Positions 224 to 13,686 of a stretch of 64,000 nucleotides of DNA are shown in pieces; the first letter of the stretch is position 1; each line of letters starts with the position of its first letter. The stretch lies in assembly GCA_041305385.1 (NCBI GenBank), contig JBFYLO010000046.1, positions 491 to 64,490 on the forward strand, read 5' to 3'. The notes beneath the pieces were generated by a model. That model saw only the letters and a program-made list of their open reading frames with translations. It was not told the origin of the DNA and made no database searches. The position numbers were made by a program, and so were the translations under genes. The stretch is from Candidatus Micrarchaeota archaeon. GTDB lineage: Archaea > Micrarchaeota > Micrarchaeia > Burarchaeales > JAKAKT01.

Positions 224-1609
224 CTAGGCGACTGACCCAGCCAGCCCCTCCATGTTCTTGAGCAGCTTCTTCTTCGCAGCCCCGTCCTGGAGCGCAGCAG
301 CGAGGACCTCGCAAATGGTTTTTACCGGGACAATCTCGATTTTTTTCTTCGCGTCCTTCCCCAAATAAACGTCCTTGAGGTTCGAGGCAGGTATCACCAC
401 CTTCTTCGCCCCGGCCTCGATTGCAGCCTCGATTTTCGCCGTGACTCCGCCAACTGGGAGCACTTCCCCCCGCACGCTGAGCGAGCCGGTCATGGCAACA
501 GTCTGGTCAATCGCGATGCCCTCCATTGCCGAGAGCACTGAAACCGCTGTTGCCACGCTCGCACTGTCCCCCTCGACTCCCTCGTAGGTCTGGAGGAACT
601 GCACGTGAATATCATACTGCGACACGTCCTTCCCGATGTGCTTCTTTATGATTGCCGAAACGTTCTCAACAGCCTCCTTCGCAATCTCCCCGAGCTTTCC
701 AGTTGCAATCAGTTTTCCCTCGCTCCTGGATGAAGACGGGGTCACTTCCGCGACAATTGGCAATATCAGCCCGCTCATCGCGTCGCCTAGCACTGCAAGT
801 CCGTTGACTTTCCCGACAAGATACCCGCTGGTCACGAACACCTGGTACTCCTTCTTTATGTCTATGAACTCCTGGGACATCTGCTGCTCGAGAGTCCTCG
901 CCACTCCCTTGGACCGTACGACGTGGTCGCGGGTGACGAGCTTTGCCCCCTCCTCCTTTGCGATGTCCCCGGCAGCCCTAACCATCCCCCCGAGCTCCCT
1001 CAGCTTGAGCGACAGCTTGTCCTTCCTCCCAGCCTTCTTCCTGGCCTCCTCAATCATCTCTTCTACAGCCGCCTTCTCGAAATGCGGTATCTTGCCGTCC
1101 TTCTTTACCTCCTGGGCGATGAACTGGACAACCCTCTCCTGGTTCTCGGGAGTGTCCGGCATCGTGTCCTCGACATAAATCTCATAGCCATATCCCCGAA
1201 TCCTCGACCTCAGGGCCGGGTGCATGTTTCGAAGGTCAATCACGTTCCCTGCAGCCACAAGCACGAAATCGCAAGGGACAGGCTCGGTCCTCACAATCGC
1301 CCCGGAGCTCATCTCGCTCTGGCCGGTAATGGAGAACTTCTTGTCCTGCATCGCTGAGAGCAAATCCTGCTGGGACCTCGGTCCAAGTGACGAGACCTCA
1401 TCCAAAAACAGGACGCCCTTGTTCGCCCTGTGAATCGCCCCTGCTTCGACCCTCAAATGAGGGGGAGTTCCCAATCCCCCGGAGTTCTTAACCAAAACGT
1501 CGTTTACGAAGAGCTTGCCCCCCTCAGTGGTGATATTGTAGACATATCCCCGGTATTCCTCGCTTTCGAGGCGGGTTACTCTAGTCGGCTTTATCCTTTT
1601 CTCCCCCAT
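224..1609 (-). CDS. lon: Archaeal LonB protease C-terminal fragment (AAA+ Walker B/sensor region plus Ser-Lys protease domain), preceded by a split-intein C-fragment (IntC); Walker A and membrane-insertion regions absent
   Basis: Strong similarity to Thermococcus LonB from SGGLGTP..HRA.KGVLF.DE onward; GDSAS and K of catalytic dyad present; N-terminal ~42 aa ends [21 protein letters not shown]|S, an intein block F/G pattern like Neq Pol IntC; no GxPGxGKS motif; TATA-like TTTAATAATTTATAAG 15-30 nt upstream of ATG at 1609 (ORF track start 1645 is upstream of that box). Confidence 0.7.
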
Positions 1610-1668
1610 AAAGACGGATATTAGCTTATAAATTATTAAAGGCAAACGGTTAACACGGGGGGATTGGC

Positions 1669-2622
1669 GTGCGAAATTGGTTCATACTTGCAGTTGCCTT
1701 GGCGTTGCTATTTTCGGGTTGCACCGCCAAATCGAAGCTCGACCAGGCGCTTGACGAGTGCAGCAGCATCCAATACGAGACCTTCAAGGAAAGCTGCAGG
1801 GCTACAGTATTCCAGGAATCAGGGGAATTCGAGCGATGCAGCGAAACAGGATACAATAACCAGACGTGCCAATCATTCATAGCAGCCAAATCCGACGTTT
1901 TGCTCTGCGAGAAAGCGGACTGTCCCGATAAGTGCTATTTCGATGCCGCCAAGAAAGCAAACAATTTCTCAATATGCGGCAGGATTTCTGACCCTGGAGT
2001 CATGGACTATTGCTATGTCACCATGTTCACGGACACCATAACCACGGATACTTCCGGCATATGTGAAAAAATAAAGTCGGAGAGGGTTATCGAACTATCC
2101 GGGTGCTTCGGTTCCGGCACAGTCGGGGATTCTGCGTTGAACCATACTTTCAAGGAATACTGCATCGCCGAAACCAAAAGCAGCCCAGAGGAATGCGCGA
2201 CATTAAGTGACGACCTGAGGGACTCGTGCCTACTCCAGCTCGCATTCAGAACTGGCGATTGCAATCTCATCAATTACACTTCAAACGACCTCGAGAACAT
2301 CACGATTTCGCGTGCCTACTGCCGCATGTTCAAAGGCATCGCTAAAAACGACAGCCGTGAATGTGATTTCCTCCAAGAAGAGAATATGCAACTACTTGCC
2401 ACCAATTGTTACCTGACGCTCGGGGTAGTAATGGGCGACGAGTCCCTTTGCGGAAAGATTGAGGAAGACTTTCTTACGACGGGCGCAAGAGACCTTTGCA
2501 CGGCATCCTCCAGAGCAACAAGCGGGGGCCTCGAGTCTTGCAACTCTCTCCAAGATAAAGATACGATGCATCTTTGCAGGGCCTTTGCGATTATGGGTGT
2601 GGGCGGGGACTGGGTAAGGTAG
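1669..2622 (+). CDS. Secreted cysteine-rich protein, probable lipoprotein (signal peptide ending LLFSGC)
   Basis: N-terminal hydrophobic signal with LFSGC lipobox-like motif; ~38 Cys spread through the 317 aa; no recognisable family. Confidence 0.45.
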
Positions 2623-2627
2623 ATTAG

Positions 2628-3788
2628 ATGTTCATAGGGGTAGTCGGCAAGCCCAATGCGGGAAAAAGCACGTTTTTCGCAGGCGCAACCCTAGTCGATG
2701 CCAAGATTGCTCCCTTCCCATTCACAACAATCGAGCCGAACCGCGGGAAAGCCTATGTCCGCGCTGAATGCCCATGCAAATCCCTCGGAACCGCCTGCAA
2801 GCCGAGGAACAGCCTCTGCGAGAATGGAACCCGCCTTCTCCCCATTGAGATGATGGATGTCGCAGGCCTGGTTCCTGATGCCCATGCAGGCCGAGGACTA
2901 GGTCTCAAATTCCTAGACGACCTTCGGGCAGCCGATGCGTTGATTCAGGTCGTTGATGCCTCTGGAAGAACTGACTTGGAGGGAAAGGATTGCGATGGCC
3001 GCGACCCTTCTGAAGAAGTCCGCTTCCTTTCCCGTGAGATAGAATACTGGATTGCCGACATCCTGAAGCGGAACATGAGCAAGATAAAAGGGCGTGGGAT
3101 AGACGAGCTGCTCACCGCGCTCACAGGGCTCAAGGTCACACGGGCCCAGATAGAAGAGGTTTCGGTGAAGAAGGGGATTCCAGTGGAAGGAATAAACTGG
3201 AACGATGAGGAGATTCTCTCATTCGCAAAGGAGATTCGCGCCATTTCAAAGCCCATTGCAATTGCAGCGAATAAGGTTGATTCACCAAATGGAAGGAAAA
3301 ATTTCGAGAAATTAAAGGCGGATTTCCCGAATCTGCTCGTGGTTCCAACGTGCGCCGAGGCAGAACTGGCCCTCAGGCGGGCAAATGAGAAAAAATTGGT
3401 GAAGTATATCCCCGGGAGCGCCGAGTTCGAGGTTTTGGGGGGCGAGCCGAAGCAGAGGGAAGCATTGGCTAAGATTCAAGACATCCTAAGAGCGAATAAC
3501 GGGACAGGAGTCCAGCAGCTCATCGACCGCGTAGTTTTCGACCTCCTGAACCTAATTGTCGTTTACCCAGTAGAAGACGAGCACAAGTTCAGCGACCATT
3601 TCGGCAACGTCCTTCCAGATGGCTATCTGCTCAAGAAAGGGAGCAGCTGCCACGCCCTGGCTGAGAAAATCCACACTGACCTCGCCCAGAAATTCGTCTG
3701 CGGCATCGATGCCAGAAAGCACATGCGAGTTGGGAAGGAGCACGTTCTGCAAAATGGGGACGTGATTAAGATTGTGGCTGGACGGTAG
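2628..3788 (+). CDS. Obg-like ATPase/GTPase of the YchF/OLA1 family with C-terminal TGS domain and a Cys4 insertion
   Basis: G1 motif GVVGKPNAGKSTFF, G3 DVAGLV, NKVD G4, C-terminal KIHTDLAQKF...GDVIKIV TGS signature; inserted ECPCKSLGTACKPRNSLCENG Cys cluster. Confidence 0.7.
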   Translation: MFIGVVGKPNAGKSTFFAGATLVDAKIAPFPFTTIEPNRGKAYVRAECPCKSLGTACKPRNSLCENGTRLLPIEMMDVAGLVPDAHAGRGLGLKFLDDLRAADALIQVVDASGRTDLEGKDCDGRDPSEEVRFLSREIEYWIADILKRNMSKIKGRGIDELLTALTGLKVTRAQIEEVSVKKGIPVEGINWNDEEILSFAKEIRAISKPIAIAANKVDSPNGRKNFEKLKADFPNLLVVPTCAEAELALRRANEKKLVKYIPGSAEFEVLGGEPKQREALAKIQDILRANNGTGVQQLIDRVVFDLLNLIVVYPVEDEHKFSDHFGNVLPDGYLLKKGSSCHALAEKIHTDLAQKFVCGIDARKHMRVGKEHVLQNGDVIKIVAGR

Positions 3789-4266
3789 AACTAGTTTATA
3801 TTCGATTACCATGGAGTTGGCAGCGATGGAGTTCCACGAATATCTAACCTTTTCTAATTGGTGGGTCGGGGTTAGGTCAATGTTGTTGCTGTTACTCTTC
3901 ACAATCCCAGCCATTATTATTGCAATAATCCCAATCCTCGGCTTGATTGCTCTGGTAGTTTGGATAGTAACCCTAATACCCTGGTCAATCGATATTACTA
4001 GGAAGGGGATACTCAAGTCCGGATTCGGAATCAACGAAATCTCGAATTATCTAAACGTAGCTAATTTCGTGATCGGTATTCAGGCAATCATCATGGGGTT
4101 TATCATAGCTGCCATCCCAATCTACACCATAGGATTAATTCCAGAAATAGGCCCGCTCCTGTCTTTTCTCGTTCAGATAACTTGGGGACTTATGACTAAT
4201 CCATTAACCGTGGACATTGCGAGAGGAAATTTTGGGTCAACACCGCATAAAACCGAAATACAATAA
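3772..4266 (+). CDS. Hypothetical polytopic membrane protein
   Basis: Four hydrophobic helices; real start may be an internal Met near 3811; no family recognised. Confidence 0.3.
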   Translation: MWLDGRTSLYSITMELAAMEFHEYLTFSNWWVGVRSMLLLLLFTIPAIIIAIIPILGLIALVVWIVTLIPWSIDITRKGILKSGFGINEISNYLNVANFVIGIQAIIMGFIIAAIPIYTIGLIPEIGPLLSFLVQITWGLMTNPLTVDIARGNFGSTPHKTEIQ

Positions 4267-4269
4267 ATT

Positions 4270-5205
4270 CTACCAAGGTGCTACTTTCCCCACGATTCTG
4301 CCCTTGTCTTGATATTCATTCCCGTTCTGGTCTGCATAGTTTATCGTTATTTCCGAAGCGAATTTGTCCATGCTGTTCAGTGGAACTTTCGGGCCTGCGC
4401 ATACAACTATAAACGTCTTACCTACCGGCACTCGTTCTGGCAAGTCAGATCTTATCTCACAGGAAGAGAATTCCGGAACGACTACATCATTTACTCGAAT
4501 GTCAAATTTTTCAGTGTTTTCCATACCGACCAGAAGACTCGTCGTGGTAACGCTTGCACCACTGCAATAAAGTCGCGTGAAACCAGGGCATTCTTCAGGA
4601 TGCCCAGACTGAAAATTAACCGGTATGGCCGAAGAGATTACTACGCCCAATAGGGACAAGGCTACCAGGAAAGAGACTACTGCGGCAACCGCCTTTTTCA
4701 AACCAAACCCATGAATCTCTCCAAGTGCAAGGGCTATCAAATAGACGTAATAGAGACCGAGCGCAATGAAGGCAACCTGCCCTAGTGAAAAGTACGAAAG
4801 ACCCCAGCTAAGCAGATAAACAACTGAAAATACAAACAGATTAAGGGAAAAAAGACGAAAGTGCTCTGCGAACTGTCCTTTCCCCCCAAGCACCTTTGCA
4901 AATGCAAAACAACCAGAAGCCACCACAAGCGTCATCAAAGAATACACGACTAAAAACATAAACACAAAGAGGAAGACCATGACTAAGGGAATCCAGAATG
5001 AAGCAGTTCCTTTTGGTAAAAATTCCGGAAGGCCCGTGCCAACTACAAAAAACATCAATGCAACTAACACCAAGGAGCTAATGAGGCTCGATACCCCGAT
5101 GCTCATGATTGCAGTCTCATATCCTGCCCGCTTCTTTTCTTCTCCGAAAGTTTCTCTAGGCGAAATGATTATTCCCTTCCAAACGGAGAGGATGTTAATG
5201 TTCAC
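4270..5205 (-). CDS. Membrane protein with N-terminal multi-TM (Yip1-like) domain and C-terminal extracytoplasmic domain
   Basis: Five predicted TM helices followed by a ~120 aa soluble Cys-containing domain. Confidence 0.4.
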   Translation of the reverse strand: MNINILSVWKGIIISPRETFGEEKKRAGYETAIMSIGVSSLISSLVLVALMFFVVGTGLPEFLPKGTASFWIPLVMVFLFVFMFLVVYSLMTLVVASGCFAFAKVLGGKGQFAEHFRLFSLNLFVFSVVYLLSWGLSYFSLGQVAFIALGLYYVYLIALALGEIHGFGLKKAVAAVVSFLVALSLLGVVISSAIPVNFQSGHPEECPGFTRLYCSGASVTTTSLLVGMENTEKFDIRVNDVVVPEFSSCEIRSDLPERVPVGKTFIVVCAGPKVPLNSMDKFASEITINYADQNGNEYQDKGRIVGKVAPW

Positions 5206-5214
5206 GCTTCCACC

Positions 5215-6279
5215 TCACTTCCTCCTTATCACTCTTGTCCTTCCCCTGTCAGCCTTCACTTCGGTCTCAATGAGCCCGAGCTTTTCGAGAGTTTCGAGAT
5301 GATTCCTAATAGTCCTATCGGTGACTCCCTCGCCCTTAATCTTGTCATAAAGCTCCCCACTGGTTAGCGGACCAGCTTCGAGCATTTTCAATATCTTTTT
5401 CTCAACAGGCTCCAGATTCCCAAGTTTTTCGTGCTCGACCTTCTCCTGGCTCGCTTCTTTCACGTGCTCGACAGTCACTTTCTTCGCCCCCCTCCTGTCC
5501 GCGAGCTTTCCCGCTTTCCAGAGTGTCGCAATGGCAACTCTCGCATCCCCGCCCCTCTTCGCTCCAATCCCAGCGCACAGGGGAATCACTTCCTCTTCGA
5601 GAACTCCCTTCCCGAAGGCTGATTTCACCCTCTCATTCAGTATGTCTTTTAGCTGCTGCGGTGAATATGGCTTGAAATAAATGCGGTGCTGTGAGAGCGA
5701 GCTGATGATTCTGGAGTCAAGTTTTGCCAGGAACTCTTCGTGATTGGTTATCCCAACAACTCCAATTGGAACTCCGAACACCTCGCTCCCCCTAGCCAGG
5801 TCATAGAGAATCGACTCCTCACCGTACTGGCTTGCAATCAGCCTGTCCACCTCATCGAGCACAAGAACCGGAATTCTTTTCTCCTTAGTTAAGAACTCGG
5901 CAATCCTCTCGGAAACCTCATCAGTGGCGACCCCCCTTCTCGGAACGATTTCCCCGAGCGCAGTCGCAAGCTTGTTCAGAATCGCGTGCCTAGTTGACAA
6001 CTCCCAGCAATTAATGTAGATGGGCAGAGCCCTTTTCGAATATTCTGACAGCTGCTTGAGCACATGCTTCGCGCAGGAGGTCTTCCCAGTCCCAGGCTGG
6101 CCGACCAGAACAATGTTTTCAGGCTTTCCGCCCTTTGTAGCCGACCTGAGGGTGAATGCCATCTCCTTGATTTCGGAGTCCCTGTGCGGGAGAACCGCCG
6201 GTAGATATTCCGGCATCAGGACCCGCTCGTCCCTGAAAACGCTTCCCTCGGCATCGAGCGAGCCGAAAATGTTCGCCAT
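5215..6279 (-). CDS. cdc6: Orc1/Cdc6 replication initiator
   Basis: Walker A LVGQPGTGKTS, Walker B VLVLDEVD, sensor motifs, C-terminal winged helix; typical 354 aa length. Confidence 0.85.
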   Translation of the reverse strand: MANIFGSLDAEGSVFRDERVLMPEYLPAVLPHRDSEIKEMAFTLRSATKGGKPENIVLVGQPGTGKTSCAKHVLKQLSEYSKRALPIYINCWELSTRHAILNKLATALGEIVPRRGVATDEVSERIAEFLTKEKRIPVLVLDEVDRLIASQYGEESILYDLARGSEVFGVPIGVVGITNHEEFLAKLDSRIISSLSQHRIYFKPYSPQQLKDILNERVKSAFGKGVLEEEVIPLCAGIGAKRGGDARVAIATLWKAGKLADRRGAKKVTVEHVKEASQEKVEHEKLGNLEPVEKKILKMLEAGPLTSGELYDKIKGEGVTDRTIRNHLETLEKLGLIETEVKADRGRTRVIRRK

Positions 6280-6310
6280 GAAAAGATATTCCCCAAACTA
6301 ATTTTTAATC

Positions 6311-6679
6311 TTACTCGTGGCTCGCCGCAGCCCTGTAAGCCACCATGAGCATGGCGAGGAAAACGAGCAGCGTGCTTATGAAAAAGGCAGCAATCCGGTT
6401 CGACCAGATGTCGATTCCCGGGAGTGGCTTGTAATGGAGCGTCAGGAGCAGGAGCGCCGTGGCCCAGTACATGGGCCTAAATGCCTTCATCCCTTCGCTC
6501 ACATAGCTGGTGAGCCTGAAGCCCCTCACTTTCGATTCCATTGCCACCATTGCGATTGCAAAAAGCGAGAGCAGTATCACCGAAGGGAGTTCATTCTTGT
6601 TCGGAAGGATGGCAATCACCGCTGCCAACACAAGGACGTCGATAATCAGGTCGGCGCCCGAGGACTCCTCGTAGGGCAT
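6311..6679 (-). CDS. Hypothetical small membrane protein (4 TM)
   Basis: Hydrophobicity pattern only. Confidence 0.35.
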   Translation of the reverse strand: MPYEESSGADLIIDVLVLAAVIAILPNKNELPSVILLSLFAIAMVAMESKVRGFRLTSYVSEGMKAFRPMYWATALLLLTLHYKPLPGIDIWSNRIAAFFISTLLVFLAMLMVAYRAAASHE

Positions 6680-6732
6680 AGTTATGCCTTGTTAACTCGG
6701 TTATTTATAGTTGTCCTTTCGAGTATACTCTC

Positions 6733-7992
6733 GTGAGACTTATCGCAGACCTCCACCTCCATTCCAAGTATTCCAGGGCCACGAGCCCGGACATGGACGT
6801 ATCGGGAATCGCGAAGTGGGCGAAGACAAAGGGCATAGGCTTAGTGGGAACCGGGGATTTTACCCACCCCCAATACCTCTCGGAACTCAAGCAGAACCTC
6901 AAGCCATTGGGAAACGGCCTTTTCGAATTCGATGGCGTCAAATTCATCCTCTCCTCCGAAGTCAGCAACATCTTCCAGCAGAATGGGCTCAAGAAAACGC
7001 ATCACGTAATACTCGCCCCGGGGTTTGAGGAAGTCGAGCAGCTTAACGATAAACTGGCGAAATGGGGGAATTTGGAGGCAGACGGGAGGCCGACTTTCGG
7101 GAGCAGAAGTGCGAGCGAGCTCGTGGAGTTGGTAATGGAAACCTCCAGGGACTTCTTCATCATTCCCGCCCATGTCTGGACCCCCTGGTTCTCAATTTTT
7201 GGGGCAAACTCGGGCTTCGATTCAGTCAAGGAGTGCTATGGGGACATGGAGAAGCACATTCACTCATTGGAGACAGGGCTCTCGAGCAACCCTGAAATGA
7301 ACTGGCGCCTCTCCTCGCTTGACAAGTATTCCTTGGTGAGCAACAGCGACGCCCATTCCCCGTCTAAACTCGGCCGGGAGGCAAACGTTTTCGAGCTCGA
7401 GGAGGCAAGCTACAAGGAACTCACCGAAGCCCTCAAAACAAAAGACAAATCCAAGTTCATCCTCACCTACGAATTCTACCCAGAAGAGGGAAAGTATCAC
7501 TTCGATGGCCATAGAGGCTGCTCAATCAGATTATCGCCCGAGGAAAGCAAAAAACACAACAACATCTGCCCTGTTTGCAGGAGAGAGCTGACAATCGGAG
7601 TCCTGCACCGAGTTGAGGAGTTGGCGGACCGGGAGCCAGGCTTCATTCCAAAGGACTCGGTTCCTTTCGAGAGCCTGGTCCCATTGGAGGAGATACTGAG
7701 CGAAGCAATAGGCAAAGGCAGGGGAACTAAATTGGTCGATCAGGAATACTGGAAATTAATCAAAAAATTTGGGAATGAGCTTGAAGTTTTGCACGCAGAT
7801 GAAAAGGAAATCGAAACCATTTCAGGGGAAAGAATTGCTCATGGAATCGCTAATGTTAGGGCCGGAAAAGTGCGGGTCCTCCCGGGCTATGATGGGGTTT
7901 ACGGAACAGTGAGCGTTTTCGGGAACGAGAAAAAAGACGAAAAAGCACCAGATTCAAGCTCAAAACAAAGTTCACTCGGGGACTTCGGCTGA
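6733..7992 (+). CDS. Endonuclease Q (EndoQ)-like PHP-domain nuclease with C-terminal zinc finger
   Basis: N-terminal ADLHLHSKYSRATS PHP motif, FDGVKFILSSEV, SNSDAHSP, CPVCRREL zinc finger; length ~420 aa matches Pyrococcus EndoQ. Confidence 0.7.
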   Translation: MRLIADLHLHSKYSRATSPDMDVSGIAKWAKTKGIGLVGTGDFTHPQYLSELKQNLKPLGNGLFEFDGVKFILSSEVSNIFQQNGLKKTHHVILAPGFEEVEQLNDKLAKWGNLEADGRPTFGSRSASELVELVMETSRDFFIIPAHVWTPWFSIFGANSGFDSVKECYGDMEKHIHSLETGLSSNPEMNWRLSSLDKYSLVSNSDAHSPSKLGREANVFELEEASYKELTEALKTKDKSKFILTYEFYPEEGKYHFDGHRGCSIRLSPEESKKHNNICPVCRRELTIGVLHRVEELADREPGFIPKDSVPFESLVPLEEILSEAIGKGRGTKLVDQEYWKLIKKFGNELEVLHADEKEIETISGERIAHGIANVRAGKVRVLPGYDGVYGTVSVFGNEKKDEKAPDSSSKQSSLGDFG

Positions 7993-8691: not shown

Positions 8692-9155
8692 GGGACTTCG
8701 GCTGATTTTCGCTTGTTCTCCATCATTCTTTCGTAAATTTCCCCGACCCTTTTCTCATTAATTTTCTGCCCGAAGCACGTGTGCGGGACCAGGGCCCCGC
8801 TGAACGTCTTGGGGATGTGGAGCAGCTCGTGGATTAGGATTTTTTGCTTCTTTTCATCGTCCAATTTGTCGAAATACTCCGCCAGAACCTCAATCACGTA
8901 ATAAGCCTTAATCTCGAGCGCCACCTGCCAGATTCTCGGCATGCTCCAAATGCGGGCATACGCCCTCGCTTTAGAACCTCTGCTCCTCATGTAGATTAAG
9001 CGATATGAGTTTATGTGCGGGAGCTCTAGGAACGGGAGGATTTCCTCGGCCATCGCCTTTACATCGGGGGCAAGCTCAAAGTCCATGAAAAGATAGTGCC
9101 AATCAGTTTTATTTTGCTGTCTATCCCGGTTATTTTCCCCTATGCCCTGACCCAA
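8688..9155 (-). CDS. Predicted zinc metallopeptidase (HExxH; SprT/WLM/DUF45-like minimal fold)
   Basis: Single HELLH motif near C-terminus with downstream acidic residue; overlaps upstream 446-aa ORF by 26 nt (probable operon). Confidence 0.45.
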   Translation of the reverse strand: MGQGIGENNRDRQQNKTDWHYLFMDFELAPDVKAMAEEILPFLELPHINSYRLIYMRSRGSKARAYARIWSMPRIWQVALEIKAYYVIEVLAEYFDKLDDEKKQKILIHELLHIPKTFSGALVPHTCFGQKINEKRVGEIYERMMENKRKSAEVP

Positions 9156-10470
9156 TACCGGTTACACGATGAGTGGCAGTTATCTGTTCCGCAGTGGCAG
9201 TTCCAATAGTGCCATTGCGCCGAAGTGATTTAAGATTCCTCTCAGTGTTGGCAGGTCCTTTGTGCGTGCTCAGTACTCCCGCCCATACGTTCTCTGGAAC
9301 GCCGTACTGTTTGAGCATCTCAATTATTTTCTCTTGGTTGTTGGCCCTCGTGGTTTCTCTCGCATATGGCGACCACGTCCCGCGAATTTCTCCAGGCCTA
9401 ACTCCAAAATCCTGTGCAAGTTCACGAATTTCCGGGTCCTTAAACAGGCCTGCCATAATCTGGTCATGCGTTAGCTTCGCAAGGTATCTGCCCGTTCCGA
9501 CTTCTTGGGCAATGACTGCCAATGGTCGCATCTCAGAGTCAGCTAGGTACTCCTCCCAAATTGCTAAACCTATTTCGACTCTACTCATTACCAATCCAGC
9601 TATCTGCTCTTCCAGTTTCCGTTCAAGTATCCCCCTGGCTTCTGGCAAAGTAAGCGTTTTGAACACTCCATCGGTATCAGTTATCGAAATCATTTCCTGA
9701 GGAGGGCGCTCGCCGTCTTTTACATGGTCTAAAAATACACTTTCACCGTTTGCCTCCAACAGTATGTGATTAAGCCTCTCTAACTGCCTTTGTTTTCTTT
9801 CCAGGGTAGGTTTTCCTTTTCCTGTAAGTTGCCCCATCAAAACGTTCTCGCTAATCCTGAATCGCTTAGCGGTTTCCTTTACTTTCTGCCCATCAACCTC
9901 GCACCCCTGCTCCAGATAGTAAACGGCAGCCTTTACGGTTCGGATATGGTACAGCGTTCCCACGGTTATTGCTATTCTCTGGTTGGATTCTCTTGTATCG
10001 AAGATGCACGATTCGACACAGCGATACAATATGCAATTGAATTCATCATGGAAAAGGGGCTTTTCATTCAAAGTGCGCCCGATTCCCTCTCCAACGGCCG
10101 TCTGGTAATATTCTACCAGCGAGCCGTTCTCAGCAAGAACAGACTGAGCCATGTTGCGCCTGCCCAGTATGCGATTCGTATATCCCACTGCCAGTTTCCA
10201 GTGGGTGGCAACGAGCTGCTCCATTCCCCTCTTTGCCTCAAGCCTCATGCGTTCGAAAGTCGGGCCCGGCCTATTCCCGTTGAGTTTCTCTTTCGCCTCT
10301 GTAAAGTCAAAAACAGCTTTGCTTGCCCGAGCGTACTCCCCTTCACTCATCACCAGCCCATTTCCATTCCTAACGCTATGTTGGAAGTTCATCATGCTCT
10401 GGAACCATGCCTGAACTGAAAGGGGAGGGTGTCCATCCTCCCGCTGGCGCTGCTTCGCGCTAGTGTGCAT
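9130..10470 (-). CDS. Hypothetical protein, 446 aa, possible helix-turn-helix segments; no family recognised
   Basis: Long uninterrupted ORF with coding-like composition; co-oriented and overlapping with the metallopeptidase gene. Confidence 0.45.
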   Translation of the reverse strand: MHTSAKQRQREDGHPPLSVQAWFQSMMNFQHSVRNGNGLVMSEGEYARASKAVFDFTEAKEKLNGNRPGPTFERMRLEAKRGMEQLVATHWKLAVGYTNRILGRRNMAQSVLAENGSLVEYYQTAVGEGIGRTLNEKPLFHDEFNCILYRCVESCIFDTRESNQRIAITVGTLYHIRTVKAAVYYLEQGCEVDGQKVKETAKRFRISENVLMGQLTGKGKPTLERKQRQLERLNHILLEANGESVFLDHVKDGERPPQEMISITDTDGVFKTLTLPEARGILERKLEEQIAGLVMSRVEIGLAIWEEYLADSEMRPLAVIAQEVGTGRYLAKLTHDQIMAGLFKDPEIRELAQDFGVRPGEIRGTWSPYARETTRANNQEKIIEMLKQYGVPENVWAGVLSTHKGPANTERNLKSLRRNGTIGTATAEQITATHRVTGIGSGHRGK

Positions 10471-10582: not shown

Positions 10583-11005
10583 GTGATGCTAATGCCGGAT
10601 GACGAGACTGCCGAAGCTGTTGCAGATGACACTCACACAGACGAACTTGCTGCTGCTGGAGAGGAGGAAGTGGATGCGGCCCTCGACGAGAAATTGCCGT
10701 TCCCGACTGCCCGGGTTGTGCGGATAATCAAGGAGAACATGAAGAAGGAGCATCAGATCCGAAGCGAGGTCAAGATTGCGGCGAACATCCTTGCGGGCGA
10801 GATGCTCAAGGACATCGCGAGGCAGATGGACGAGGAGGAGTACTTCACGCTCTCCATTGAGCACTTCAACAAGGCGGCCAAGAAATACAGGGAGGTTGAC
10901 CTCCAGCTCAAGCGCCTCGAGAACATAAAAAAGATGCTGGAGAAGCAAAGGGCCGACCTTGAAGAGAAGATAATGCAGATAGAGAAAGCGGAAGAGTGGA
11001 AGTAA
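10583..11005 (+). CDS. Histone-fold protein of NF-Y/NC2/Dpb4 type with acidic N-terminal tail and C-terminal coiled coil
   Basis: LPFPTARVVRIIKENM...IAANILAGEMLKDIARQ matches the LP(x)ARI(K)KIMK alpha1-L1-alpha2 pattern of NF-YC/NC2 histone folds; N-terminus rich in D/E; C-terminus heptad-like K/E-rich. Confidence 0.5.
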   Translation: MMLMPDDETAEAVADDTHTDELAAAGEEEVDAALDEKLPFPTARVVRIIKENMKKEHQIRSEVKIAANILAGEMLKDIARQMDEEEYFTLSIEHFNKAAKKYREVDLQLKRLENIKKMLEKQRADLEEKIMQIEKAEEWK

Positions 11006-13686
11006 ACTATTCGGGGGTGAGGAACCTCCAGGTCCCTCAGCTAGACGTGGTCAAACTTGTTCTGTTCCTTCTGGTGATTCTTCCCTCTGCATCGGCGATT
11101 CCAGAACCGAAGCTTTCTTATTCGGAAACATATCCCGAGGCCAGGCCCTGGCCGGGCTGTTGGCCCGAAGAAGGAACCTCGATGCCCTGCTTCTACAGCC
11201 ACAACAGCGTTTCACTCAGCAGCAGATACGATTGCGGGTTCGATTCCGGGATAAACGCATACTTCGCGAGGAACGCGAGCTTCTCGTTCAGCATTCCGAG
11301 AACCGGGAATGCCACCCTCGCTTTCAGGATGTATGAATGCACCTACAACCCGCGCTGGATTACGGTGCTAGTAAACGGGATTTGCAGCATACAAGTCGAA
11401 AACAGGGCTTCCGGAGGCACGAACAGGGGCCCAACAACAAAAACAATCAACATAGCCGAAGATTGCCTGGTGGAAGGAGAAAACAGAATGGAGATAATCG
11501 GAGACGTTGAACTAGGCCTTGGAAAAATGGGGTGTCCGCAGCTTACCTGTCGAAAAGCCCCGCTTTACGCCGACTTTCGAATCCCGGAGCAAGTGAGAAG
11601 CTCGGAAGTTTACGGAAGCGTTTTTCTTGCGGAGAGTTTCTCCAGTTACCTTTTCAAGCCATTAATAGGTGAGGGAGCCAACGGAAGGCTCACTCTCCTG
11701 CCTGGTGCAGTTATTAATGAATGCACGGGTTGCGAGCTGTCTGGCTCAGAGATAAATCTCGGGCCAGGGACCCACAGGATAAACTATTCACTTGAAAACC
11801 TCCAGGTTCACCTCGCTTTCCCAAATTCCCACAACGCATTCCTCGCAAACGAAAGCCGAAAAATCAACGTCACGGTTTCCTACTTGGGAACCCCGACTTC
11901 GGCAGGCGTCTATTTCCCAGAAGGCACCCTTGCCTGCAATGCGGTTGGAGGTTCTTGTGGTCTCTTGCTTCCAGAGGCGGCAGTCGGCACCCATTCCATC
12001 GAGGTCCAGGCAATCGAGAGCCCCATTGGGAGAAGAGGAAAGGCCTCAGCTGGATATAAAATCGACCCGGACCCGGAAGTCAACGTTTCCGAGACTTCGG
12101 GTAGCTCGCTCCTAGTCACGTTCGAAATAATAAACCCAACTCACGAGAATTTCGTCCGCCTTCTCGCCTACTCCCTCCCAGAGGACTTCGAGGGCAATTT
12201 CAGCATAACGCCGCACCCAGAGAGCCTCTCCACATCGAATAGTTCCATCTCTTTCTCCGCCACCTGCCCGGCCTATTCAAACTGCACCTACAATGCGGTT
12301 TTCCCAATAAAAGGAGTTTTAGTCTCAGTTTCGCCAACTTCATTCCCGAAAATCTCCAGAGTCAGTGAGAGCATACTCTCTAAGGGCACGATTCTCCTTA
12401 CCAACACCAACCCAAAAAAGCCAATGCATTCAACCGGCAGAATTTGGAACTGCACCGAAGGGTGCGCGTGGGACTTAGAGCTCGCCCCGCTCGAGAGCAG
12501 GAGCCTCGAATACTCACTCGAACAAGCAGGAGCATCACCATGTGGTTCAAGAAAGACCGCGAGCGCAGGGGCGAGGGAAGAGCTGGAACTCTGTATCCGA
12601 GTGCCGGCCGGCTTTCCTGCGGCCACTAGTATCGAGTATTCGGTTCCGTTCGTTTCAATGCAAGGCTATTCCGGGAGTCCTGAAGCCAGAGTTAAAGGAG
12701 TTTCTGTTCCAATCACCGTCGGTTCGTCCGGACTTCTTATCTCCCTAGGGCTCCTTGCCCCCGGGGAGCACCAGGCAACCATCTCATACCTAAAAACAGC
12801 AGACCAAGCGCCAACCCAGAAAAACGATGCGCCGGAAACCAAAAAGCAAGAGGCGAAACAAGAGGAGTCACCCCCACCAGCCCCTCTCCCAGACAAGCCA
12901 GAAGTTTCAAAGCAGCCAGAACTCCTAATCACCGCTCCAGATGCATCGATGCTCTCCGAAATCGTCCAGGTGGTCGCCATATCCGGCGACTCGCCTGCTG
13001 AAGGCGAGATGTCATTCGTCTCACCGAGCGGAAGGGAGTTTTTGCTAAGACTCGATAATGGCCGGGCAGCCCTCAGGCTCGACGAGGTTGGAATTTGGAA
13101 AGTCAGCTATCAGGGACAGGAGCGTTCGATTCTGGTGGGGAGAACCATAACCGAAATCCCCAAGGAAACAGCAGGCCAACCAACACAGCACGAACTTTCC
13201 GATTTCTCCGTAGCTAGCAAAAGCTCCCCATCATCTGGTTTGGAATTGGGCTCGTGGGTTCTCCTCCTGCTGTTCATTCCGTTCCTTGCCATGCCCGCCC
13301 TTGGCTATCTCCTCATGGTGAGCTCTCGCGGGCCCCAGGTGCTTGTTTCGAAAAGATACGACGGAAAAAAAATCTATCTCGAAGTTGAGAACAGCGGAGG
13401 CGCCCTTACTGACATCTGGATTTCCGATTCCCTCCCAGATGATGCAGTCCTAGGGACTACCGGGGAAGGGAGCTTCAAGAAAACCATTTTTGGGAACGTG
13501 CTTAAGTGGAGGCTTCCTTCTCTCGATGGTGGTGCGAAGTGGAGTGCGAGCTATGAGATGAGGACAGTTTCCGAGAACATTGGAGGCGCGCGCCTCCAGG
13601 CGATAGACCTAAAGGGAAACCAGCTCAAGGCCGCGAGCGGGGAAACCGAGAAGTCAACAAGCAACAATTTAAATGGGGCCAGCTAA
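10996..13686 (+). CDS. Large cell-surface protein (signal peptide, Pro/Thr/Lys-rich linker, C-terminal TM anchor)
   Basis: Signal peptide better explained by GTG at 11047 (VKLVLFLLVILPSASA); many N-x-S/T sequons; PAPLPDKPEVSKQPE linker; C-terminal hydrophobic helix followed by a ~120 aa domain. Confidence 0.5.
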   Translation: MEVNYSGVRNLQVPQLDVVKLVLFLLVILPSASAIPEPKLSYSETYPEARPWPGCWPEEGTSMPCFYSHNSVSLSSRYDCGFDSGINAYFARNASFSFSIPRTGNATLAFRMYECTYNPRWITVLVNGICSIQVENRASGGTNRGPTTKTINIAEDCLVEGENRMEIIGDVELGLGKMGCPQLTCRKAPLYADFRIPEQVRSSEVYGSVFLAESFSSYLFKPLIGEGANGRLTLLPGAVINECTGCELSGSEINLGPGTHRINYSLENLQVHLAFPNSHNAFLANESRKINVTVSYLGTPTSAGVYFPEGTLACNAVGGSCGLLLPEAAVGTHSIEVQAIESPIGRRGKASAGYKIDPDPEVNVSETSGSSLLVTFEIINPTHENFVRLLAYSLPEDFEGNFSITPHPESLSTSNSSISFSATCPAYSNCTYNAVFPIKGVLVSVSPTSFPKISRVSESILSKGTILLTNTNPKKPMHSTGRIWNCTEGCAWDLELAPLESRSLEYSLEQAGASPCGSRKTASAGAREELELCIRVPAGFPAATSIEYSVPFVSMQGYSGSPEARVKGVSVPITVGSSGLLISLGLLAPGEHQATISYLKTADQAPTQKNDAPETKKQEAKQEESPPPAPLPDKPEVSKQPELLITAPDASMLSEIVQVVAISGDSPAEGEMSFVSPSGREFLLRLDNGRAALRLDEVGIWKVSYQGQERSILVGRTITEIPKETAGQPTQHELSDFSVASKSSPSSGLELGSWVLLLLFIPFLAMPALGYLLMVSSRGPQVLVSKRYDGKKIYLEVENSGGALTDIWISDSLPDDAVLGTTGEGSFKKTIFGNVLKWRLPSLDGGAKWSASYEMRTVSENIGGARLQAIDLKGNQLKAASGETEKSTSNNLNGAS

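Follow-up and report, generated by a model that had tools for sequence, protein, structure and literature searches.

LonB, the Lon protease of archaea, is listed among the hosts of inteins (PMC4760082, PMC3906313). In Euryarchaeota, 10 LonB inteins have been counted (Novikova et al. 2016, PMC4760082), and InBase holds the Lon inteins Pab Lon, of 333 amino acids (aa), and Pfu Lon, of 401 aa (PMC3906313). The euryarchaeal inteins are single polypeptides, most of them with an endonuclease domain, and they splice in cis. In the DNA studied here, by contrast, intein and host gene are most likely distributed over two genes. This DNA, called the window below, is a stretch of 64,000 nucleotides from a Candidatus Micrarchaeota archaeon (contig JBFYLO010000046.1, positions 491 to 64,490). 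A minus-strand gene at 224 to 1609 of the window is most likely one half, the C-terminal one, of a LonB protease gene that is naturally split; its product would be rejoined to the other half by protein trans-splicing. The protease is, in other words, most likely stitched together after translation.

To our knowledge, naturally split inteins in cellular chromosomal genes comprise only a few cases, the cyanobacterial DnaE inteins and the Nanoarchaeum PolB intein. Most other split inteins come from phage or metagenomic replication genes. The PolB split intein of Nanoarchaeum equitans (NEQ068/NEQ528; PDB 5oxx, 5oxz) is similar to the present one in being natural, chromosomal, from a DPANN archaeon and broken at the canonical site, and the split-intein C-fragments (IntC) of the two are alike (LYDLSTESGKFYVNGLVLHN compared with a 20-residue stretch). 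However, its host is DNA polymerase B and not a Lon protease, its IntC differs from that of the window at F:4 (Asp, against Asn) and at G:6 (His, against Lys), and it is known from a single hyperthermophile, whereas split LonB is a large family extending over Micrarchaeota, Diapherotrites and Woesearchaeota. The cyanobacterial DnaE split inteins (Ssp, Npu), like split LonB, serve an essential host protein encoded by two dispersed genes. Their fragments are also of similar size, about 100–123 and 36 aa compared with 119 and 42 aa here, and the combination of an acidic N-fragment (IntN) with a basic IntC is a likeness that holds for the window's clade. DnaE differs in its Cys1/Cys+1 thioester chemistry, which is Ser1/Ser+1 here, as well as in the domain of life and the host protein. 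Ser1/Ser+1 is shared with the Cys-less split inteins used in engineering (Aes123 PolB1, LCGC14 PolB2, CP21 PolB1 and PolB16 OarG), but these were taken from PolB genes of phages or metagenomes, and one of them, PolB16 OarG, has an atypical split that leaves an IntN of 15 aa. The Aes123, LCGC14 and CP21 PolB inteins have the typical split site, as here (PMC12707363). The IntN of the split LonB family shows no evident [R/K]-His 'NX' motif of the kind described in Ser1 inteins (PMC10189870). By sequence, the closest solved structure is the KlbA mini-intein of M. jannaschii (PDB 2jmz), which is contiguous and sits in another host protein. The KlbA intein starts with Ala1 and follows the class 2 mechanism, unlike the Ser1 intein considered here.

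The known LonB inteins are closer still. A partial LonB from Thermococcus sp., P0258, begins with GNLLANGLFVKN and continues with SGGLGTPAHERVE; the homologue search that yielded it, aimed at the Pyrococcus Lon inteins, gave only proteins of at most 483 aa, mostly contig-truncated LonB fragments, and P0258 was its one useful match. Because P0258 begins in this way, the Thermococcales LonB intein allele occupies the same site and has the same Lys-Asn end as the intein of the window. The insertion site of the Pab and Pfu Lon inteins is presumably this one as well. O'Brien and colleagues are said to have reported in 2010 that the Pab Lon intein splices despite a Lys in place of the penultimate His. 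The split intein of the window has the host protein, the site, a homologous block G and the Lys-Asn end in common with that of Thermococcus. It appears to be derived from the known LonB intein allele. The initial annotation of the window, made from the letters alone, had pointed to the Lys-Asn end; this is confirmed in the window, but it is not new for Lon inteins. In PMC4031507, a Pab Lon splicing study is cited as ref 84, and inteins lacking the penultimate His are stated to be able to splice (refs 74 and 84 therein).

In the full-text literature, we found no description of a split Lon or LonB intein, nor of a DPANN split intein besides Nanoarchaeum PolB; most subscription journals are outside such a search, and the negative is therefore absence of evidence only. 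It is the split form of the LonB intein that is apparently undescribed, Lon itself being already known as an intein host.

The LonB C-half gene and its intein leader

The features of the gene, all on the minus strand, are as follows.

224..1609, minus strand: coding sequence of the LonB C-half precursor (IntC plus C-extein), 461 aa and a TAG stop, complete
1609-1607, minus strand: ATG start of this open reading frame; its TAG stop is at 226-224
1484..1609, minus strand: IntC, residues 1-42, with blocks F and G, penultimate Lys41 and terminal Asn42
1481..1483, minus strand: codon of Ser+1, the first C-extein residue and predicted transesterification nucleophile; S43, invariant in the alignment
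227..1483, minus strand: C-extein, residues 43-461, with Pfam and NCBIfam matches; collinear with T. onnurineus LonB (3K1J)
1463-1483, minus strand: SGGLGTP motif of the C-extein
1397-1417, minus strand: Walker B motif GVLFLDE of the C-extein
1187-1222, minus strand: a 12-residue motif of the C-extein
557-571, minus strand: GDSAS motif in the Lon_C protease domain
422-451, minus strand: a 10-residue motif in the Lon_C protease domain
1626-1640, minus strand: AT-rich TATA-like box TTTAATAATTTATAA, 17-31 nucleotides upstream of the ATG, read from the sequence
1682..1684, minus strand: in-frame TGA closing the reading frame, 24 codons or 75 nucleotides upstream of the ATG

The encoded protein is identical to the database protein P0001. 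Residues 37-453 match positions 191-606 of the 608 in TIGR00764, the NCBIfam profile of archaeal LonB, with 651.8 bits (cut-off 516.6). About 190 initial positions, which contain Walker A and the membrane insertion, have no counterpart. Pfam detects the LonB AAA-lid and the Lon_C protease domain, and the AAA+ module only on its Walker B side. The initial annotation had described the frame as LonB from the SGGLGTP and Walker B region onward, without Walker A and the two-helix membrane insertion, and the profile agrees on both points. The open reading frame does not contain, in a single polypeptide, the AAA+ module with Walker A, the membrane insertion, Walker B and the Ser-Lys protease domain that make up a full LonB. 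Completeness in this sense is predicted for the spliced product alone.

The gene has a boundary of its own on the upstream side. Its frame is closed by the TGA at 1684-1682, and a divergent plus-strand reading frame begins at 1669. A tblastn search of the 64 kb detected neither a LonB N-half nor an IntN; its queries were four LonB N-halves, the 230 N-terminal residues of the intein-less LonB P0010 and the first 400 aa of P0008, and the sole match was to the P-loop of an Orc1/Cdc6 gene. The earlier statement that there is no upstream coding capacity is upheld. The gene starts with the ATG at 1609, and the TTG at 1645 is an alternative upstream start without support from orthologues. Among the best 120 matches to the window protein, at least 27 other C-halves (about 453-483 aa) start as this one does, the Met being 37-68 residues, mostly 40-44, ahead of SGGLGTP; such a recurrence of the architecture cannot be put down to chance. 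The TATA-like box upstream of Met 1609, already recognized in the initial annotation, has similar boxes ahead of the IntC start in two sister genomes, loci L003 and L026. It is a putative independent promoter giving a leaderless or short-leader mRNA. Together, the conserved Met, the TGA 75 nucleotides upstream and the box suggest that the C-half gene is independently transcribed.

Both parts of the protein are under purifying selection. Between the window and L003, the proportions of nonsynonymous (pN) and synonymous (pS) differences are 0.18 and 0.91 for the IntC, and 0.058 and 0.59 for the extein; only pN and pS, and not dN/dS, are given because synonymous sites are saturated.

The 42-aa leader ends with VLVKN and is followed directly by SGGLGTP. 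Its intein identity, including a likeness to the Nanoarchaeum Pol IntC, had been proposed before and is borne out by profile comparison. A family profile of the IntC (45 positions) was compared with the PDB, and its top four matches are all inteins, each aligned in the C-terminal part: PI-PkoII (E 0.002), the Nanoarchaeum Pol IntC NEQ528 (E 0.005), Mja KlbA (E 0.009) and NrdJ-1 (E 0.011). The single window sequence matches the Nanoarchaeum IntC (5oxx_B) with E 1.5. TIGR01443 and Pfam Intein_splicing give weak matches at the correct C-terminal positions, and the leader can be aligned with the C-terminal end of the mini-intein that P0008 carries in contiguous form. In 28 aligned C-half sequences Gly21, Tyr24, Asn25, Thr28, Gly31, Asn42 and Ser+1 (S43) are invariant. 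N42 and S43 provide the C-terminal Asn and the Ser, Thr or Cys at +1 that characterize intein block G.

At G:6 the residue varies among H, K, S and F within the split LonB intein family. One orthologue, at 3100-4500 of locus L004 (LacPavin metagenome-assembled genome, MAG), has an IntC ending in Phe-Asn (…DDVLAFN, then SGG). The positions at which the window has Lys (G:6), Asn (F:4) and Lys (F:13) are assisting, variable positions (PMC4031507). A phmmer search with the 45-aa IntC against 1.84 billion representatives returned 11 matches. The best of these, P0245, is a repeat protein; it was rejected as a chance match because weak 23-aa matches were summed over its repeats and it has no intein domain. 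P0247 (345 aa), also from this search, is a split LonB C-half (…ILVHN, then SGGLGTP) with a second intein downstream, which starts after …RTEPIP, just ahead of the conserved DFVLVAAGN, and marks a second LonB insertion site.

Partner N-halves and contiguous forms

When the N-extein was combined with the N-part of the P0008 intein as a query, 75 intein-bearing N-terminal LonB proteins were found, in Micrarchaeota, Diapherotrites and Woesearchaeota. In these proteins …HDP[LF]Q is followed by an intein in place of SGGLGTP, and in at least 69 of the 75 an IntN tail of 105-146 aa then runs to a stop. The N-halves are about 325-390 aa long, with Walker A and the membrane segment (transmembrane helices) fused to IntN, and are mostly annotated as "ATP-binding protein". 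Of the 75, 61 have Ser as first intein residue, 11 have Cys and 3 have Thr. Identity between the fragments falls to about 24%, yet Thr and His of block B (TPEH; TxxH) never vary, and beyond this Thr-Pro…His a Tyr (YE), an Asn (NRR) and an Ala are nearly invariant. The partners from the sister genomes, P0132 and P0124, have both the position 1 nucleophile and block B. Thr, an unusual position 1 nucleophile for inteins, directly follows …HDPLQ in the N-halves P0205, P0232 and P0236 and in the contiguous P0254 (1159 aa).

The IntN profile finds the KlbA intein as its best match in the PDB (E 2.9e-15). The VMA, CDC21, RadA, PolII, PI-PkoII, NrdJ-1 and RecA inteins come next, and a bacterial intein-like domain, Hedgehog and a TFIIB entry further on. 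Down to E of about 0.07 the matches are inteins or other Hint-fold domains alone, and the first non-Hint protein, HSP82, appears at E of about 0.3. When IntN of P0131, the candidate partner discussed below, is fused to the window IntC, the product matches Pfam Intein_splicing with E 2.2e-7 and KlbA with E 1.9e-5, the latter alignment running across the break. Fused split pairs are collinear with the contiguous mini-intein. They are broken at the loop in which the contiguous forms P0009 and P0254 have their endonuclease. With an IntN of 119 aa and an IntC of 42 aa the split site is a typical one; in naturally split inteins the IntN has about 100-120 aa and the IntC about 35-40 aa (PMC12707363).

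In the window's clade both intein fragments lack cysteine. There the net charge of IntN is -2 to -6 and that of the first 15 IntC residues +1 to +3. This complementarity is missing in the lineage in which the two genes are adjacent, and is therefore not a property of the whole family. An IntN segment, RVMSMNRRAYEGRIVKVSS…TTP (residues 301-328 of P0131), weakly resembles the window IntC at 1511-1594 on the minus strand (tblastn E 0.38), and several intein profile alignments also contain a second, weaker internal match. This internal resemblance is consistent with the pseudo-twofold symmetry of the HINT fold.

Contiguous forms occur at the same site. Among full-length relatives the closest is P0008 (805 aa), a LonB whose contiguous mini-intein of 164 aa begins with CIPAG, ends with FILTHN and sits exactly between …GDVRHDPLQ and SGGLGTP…; P0008 scores 44.4 bits with Pfam Intein_splicing, above the gathering cut-off of 35.8. 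Two contiguous versions at this site, P0007 and P0009, are contig-truncated, and P0009 has a match to a LAGLIDADG endonuclease. The contiguous forms also include P0248 and P0254, in which the intein starts with Ser1 or Thr1 and ends in Ser-Asn. Read from the forms present in databases, the order of fission would be an intein-free LonB, then a contiguous intein with LAGLIDADG endonuclease, a mini-intein, adjacent split genes and finally dispersed split genes, the state in the window's clade. The adjacent and contiguous forms would then show intermediate stages of gene fission.

The dispersed or split arrangement of LonB is common in DPANN archaea. Contigs were scanned with a fused N+C query in the GTDB representatives, to which the window's genome does not belong. 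In the sister MAG WY4.bin88 the C-half, 90% identical to that of the window, is on JAKAKT010000042 and the N-half (P0132) on JAKAKT010000048; in the sister MAG SRP141376_co3_467 the C-half is on CAZYPB010000007 and the N-half (P0124) on CAZYPB010000004. The two genes are dispersed in this clade. The C-half locus is syntenic in four genomes, namely the window, L003 (WY4.bin88), L004 and L026. In each of them the C-half gene and a YchF-like GTPase gene point away from each other, and Orc1/Cdc6 lies on the far side of the latter. Because of this shared synteny, the relocation of the halves should predate the window's clade. In a more distant lineage (L032, L033) the halves are neighbours on the same strand, separated by 134 bp. 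The spacer has stops in all three frames and is identical at 133 of 134 positions in an ENA and a JGI assembly. Near this adjacent pair, L032 has a TPP-enzyme (PFOR-like) gene of 666 aa (5956-7956, the same as L031 4727-6727) that has Intein_splicing and faint LAGLIDADG matches and is another intein-containing gene.

The initial annotation had called for an IntN-bearing N-half. Many such partner genes exist in relatives, and two sister MAGs contain both halves; that of the organism itself is not in the window. A matching gene probably lies elsewhere in its genome. The likeliest candidate for its product is P0131 (357 aa), an NCBI-only protein encoded on a 38.6-kb contig. It is the only NCBI-only N-half in the clade that has no link to a different assembly, P0124 being from CAZYPB01. 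Its distances run parallel to those of the window C-half, with 75% for the N-half where the C-half has 92% (WY4.bin88), and 61% where the C-half has 81% (CAZYPB).

When the P0131 N-extein and the window C-extein are joined in silico, the 657-aa product aligns to T. onnurineus LonB 3K1J with E 1e-219, and the alignment has no gap at HDPLQ-SGGLGTP, as expected for a precise insertion. We propose the following course of events. The window product would consist of the 42-aa IntC and a LonB C-extein with Walker B, lid and Ser-Lys protease domain. The partner product would consist of an N-extein with the Walker A P-loop and the two-helix membrane anchor, ending in …HDPLQ, and an IntN of about 119 aa with Ser1 and TPEH. 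The membrane-anchored N-precursor and the soluble C-precursor may associate through their intein fragments, the IntN being acidic and the start of the IntC basic. The fragments would fold as one HINT domain and undergo class-1 trans-splicing with oxygen nucleophiles only, in which Ser1 undergoes an N-O acyl shift, transesterification to Ser+1 follows, Asn42 cyclises and an O-N shift completes the reaction. The outcome would be an uninterrupted LonB, about 657 aa long, in which …HDPLQ-SGGLGTP… forms the native junction.

Weighing the explanations

The split LonB with trans-splicing accounts for the architecture of the gene, the intein identity of both fragments, the conservation of the catalytic residues, the presence of both halves in sister genomes and the restored LonB sequence. 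Several points weigh against it. The N-half of the window's own genome was not observed and is absent from the 64-kb window, and what ties P0131 to the window is only a process of elimination and a phylogenetic distance that matches. Three assisting positions of the IntC depart from the commonest residues: Lys41 stands at G:6 in place of His, Asn25 at F:4 (VYN) in place of Asp, and a Lys at F:13 in place of His. The penultimate His and the Asp at F:4 are common but not obligatory in inteins. The fused IntN of P0131 and IntC of the window score 31.2 bits with Pfam Intein_splicing, below its gathering cut-off of 35.8.

The non-canonical residues at G:6 (Lys), F:4 (Asn) and F:13 (Lys), together with the drift of G:6 among H, K, S and F across the family, would also suit a LonB made of two pieces without splicing, in which the intein fragments act as a high-affinity dimerisation module and the halves are held non-covalently. 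We regard this as unlikely. The residues that form and resolve the ester are all retained (Ser, Cys or Thr at position 1, the invariant Asn and Ser+1, and the Thr and His of block B), and a pure docking role would not preserve them across fragments that have diverged to about 24% identity. Inteins without a penultimate His are known to splice (PMC4031507). Moreover, an insert of about 160 aa, if retained, would interrupt the almost invariant LonB motif that contains the junction and would probably be disruptive. We infer that the halves are spliced and do not merely associate. The partner family, the contiguous P0008 and the fragment profiles support the earlier proposal of a Lon rebuilt by protein trans-splicing, a step that itself is deduced from sequence.

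The absence of an N-half from the 64-kb window would fit a stand-alone, truncated Lon-like protease with a 42-aa leader that is the decaying relic of a former intein. This is very improbable, because the IntC is under purifying selection (with the pN and pS given above) and its catalytic positions are invariant, and because sister genomes retain an intact IntN-bearing N-half. AAA+ ATPases do not bind ATP without Walker A, so the truncated module would be unable to do so.

The gene might also be a pseudogene, or an ordinary or intein-containing LonB gene broken by a frameshift or assembly artefact; a single metagenome-assembled contig cannot by itself rule out misassembly, and the initial annotation had named frameshift or misassembly as a refutation. 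This is hardly credible: at least 27 independent sequences are broken at this point, with a conserved start about 40 aa ahead of SGGLGTP, an in-frame stop lies 75 nucleotides upstream beside a divergent neighbour, the GTPase gene is directly upstream in the syntenic genomes, the adjacent-gene spacer has its stops, tblastn of the 64 kb finds no remnant of an N-half, and the 461-codon frame is fully open under strong purifying selection, so that frameshift and misassembly are excluded by independent assemblies, synteny and spacer.

Gene surroundings and significance

Between the LonB C-half gene and the GTPase gene of the window is the plus-strand reading frame at 1669-2622, which encodes a cysteine-rich protein of 317 aa with a lipoprotein-like N-terminus (…LLFSGC…) and no Pfam match. 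It looks like a lineage-specific insertion, because in L003 (WY4.bin88) the C-half and GTPase genes are only about 68 bp apart. Elsewhere the window carries ordinary archaeal housekeeping genes, among them Orc1/Cdc6 (5215-6279), a P-type ATPase, an H+-PPase and AlaRS. Several reading frames of 400-900 aa are without Pfam match (6733-7992, 9130-10470 and 10996-13686). ARAGORN detected no tRNA genes in the 64-kb window.

DPANN genomes are known for split genes, and a split LonB is therefore unsurprising in principle to the specialist. It is nevertheless apparently a genuine, unreported case of evolutionary and practical interest. We lean towards the broader view that an undescribed, old and large split-intein family divides the membrane-anchored LonB in many DPANN archaea (Micrarchaeota, Diapherotrites and Woesearchaeota), that it is the first in a protease or AAA+ unfoldase, that it could make assembly controllable after translation, and that its form in the window's clade is Cys-free, presumably mesophilic and of the Ser1/Ser+1 type with a Lys-Asn end.

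If true, split LonB would represent a new class of split-intein host, a membrane AAA+ protease, and a large archaeal family that current annotation hides under the label "ATP-binding protein" for its N-halves. In the annotation of DPANN MAGs and estimates of their completeness, LonB would be scored as truncated or duplicated. The family offers many natural Ser1/Ser+1 fragment pairs, cysteine-free in the window's clade, and the cysteine-free Lys-Asn split intein of that clade would be useful for protein engineering. Related genomes would display the stages of gene fission side by side, from contiguous inteins with endonuclease through mini-inteins and adjacent split genes to dispersed ones. Since the N-precursor would be in the membrane and the C-precursor soluble, assembly of the protease could be controlled after translation. 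This raises the question of whether trans-splicing at the membrane may serve as a form of Lon regulation in genome-reduced symbionts.

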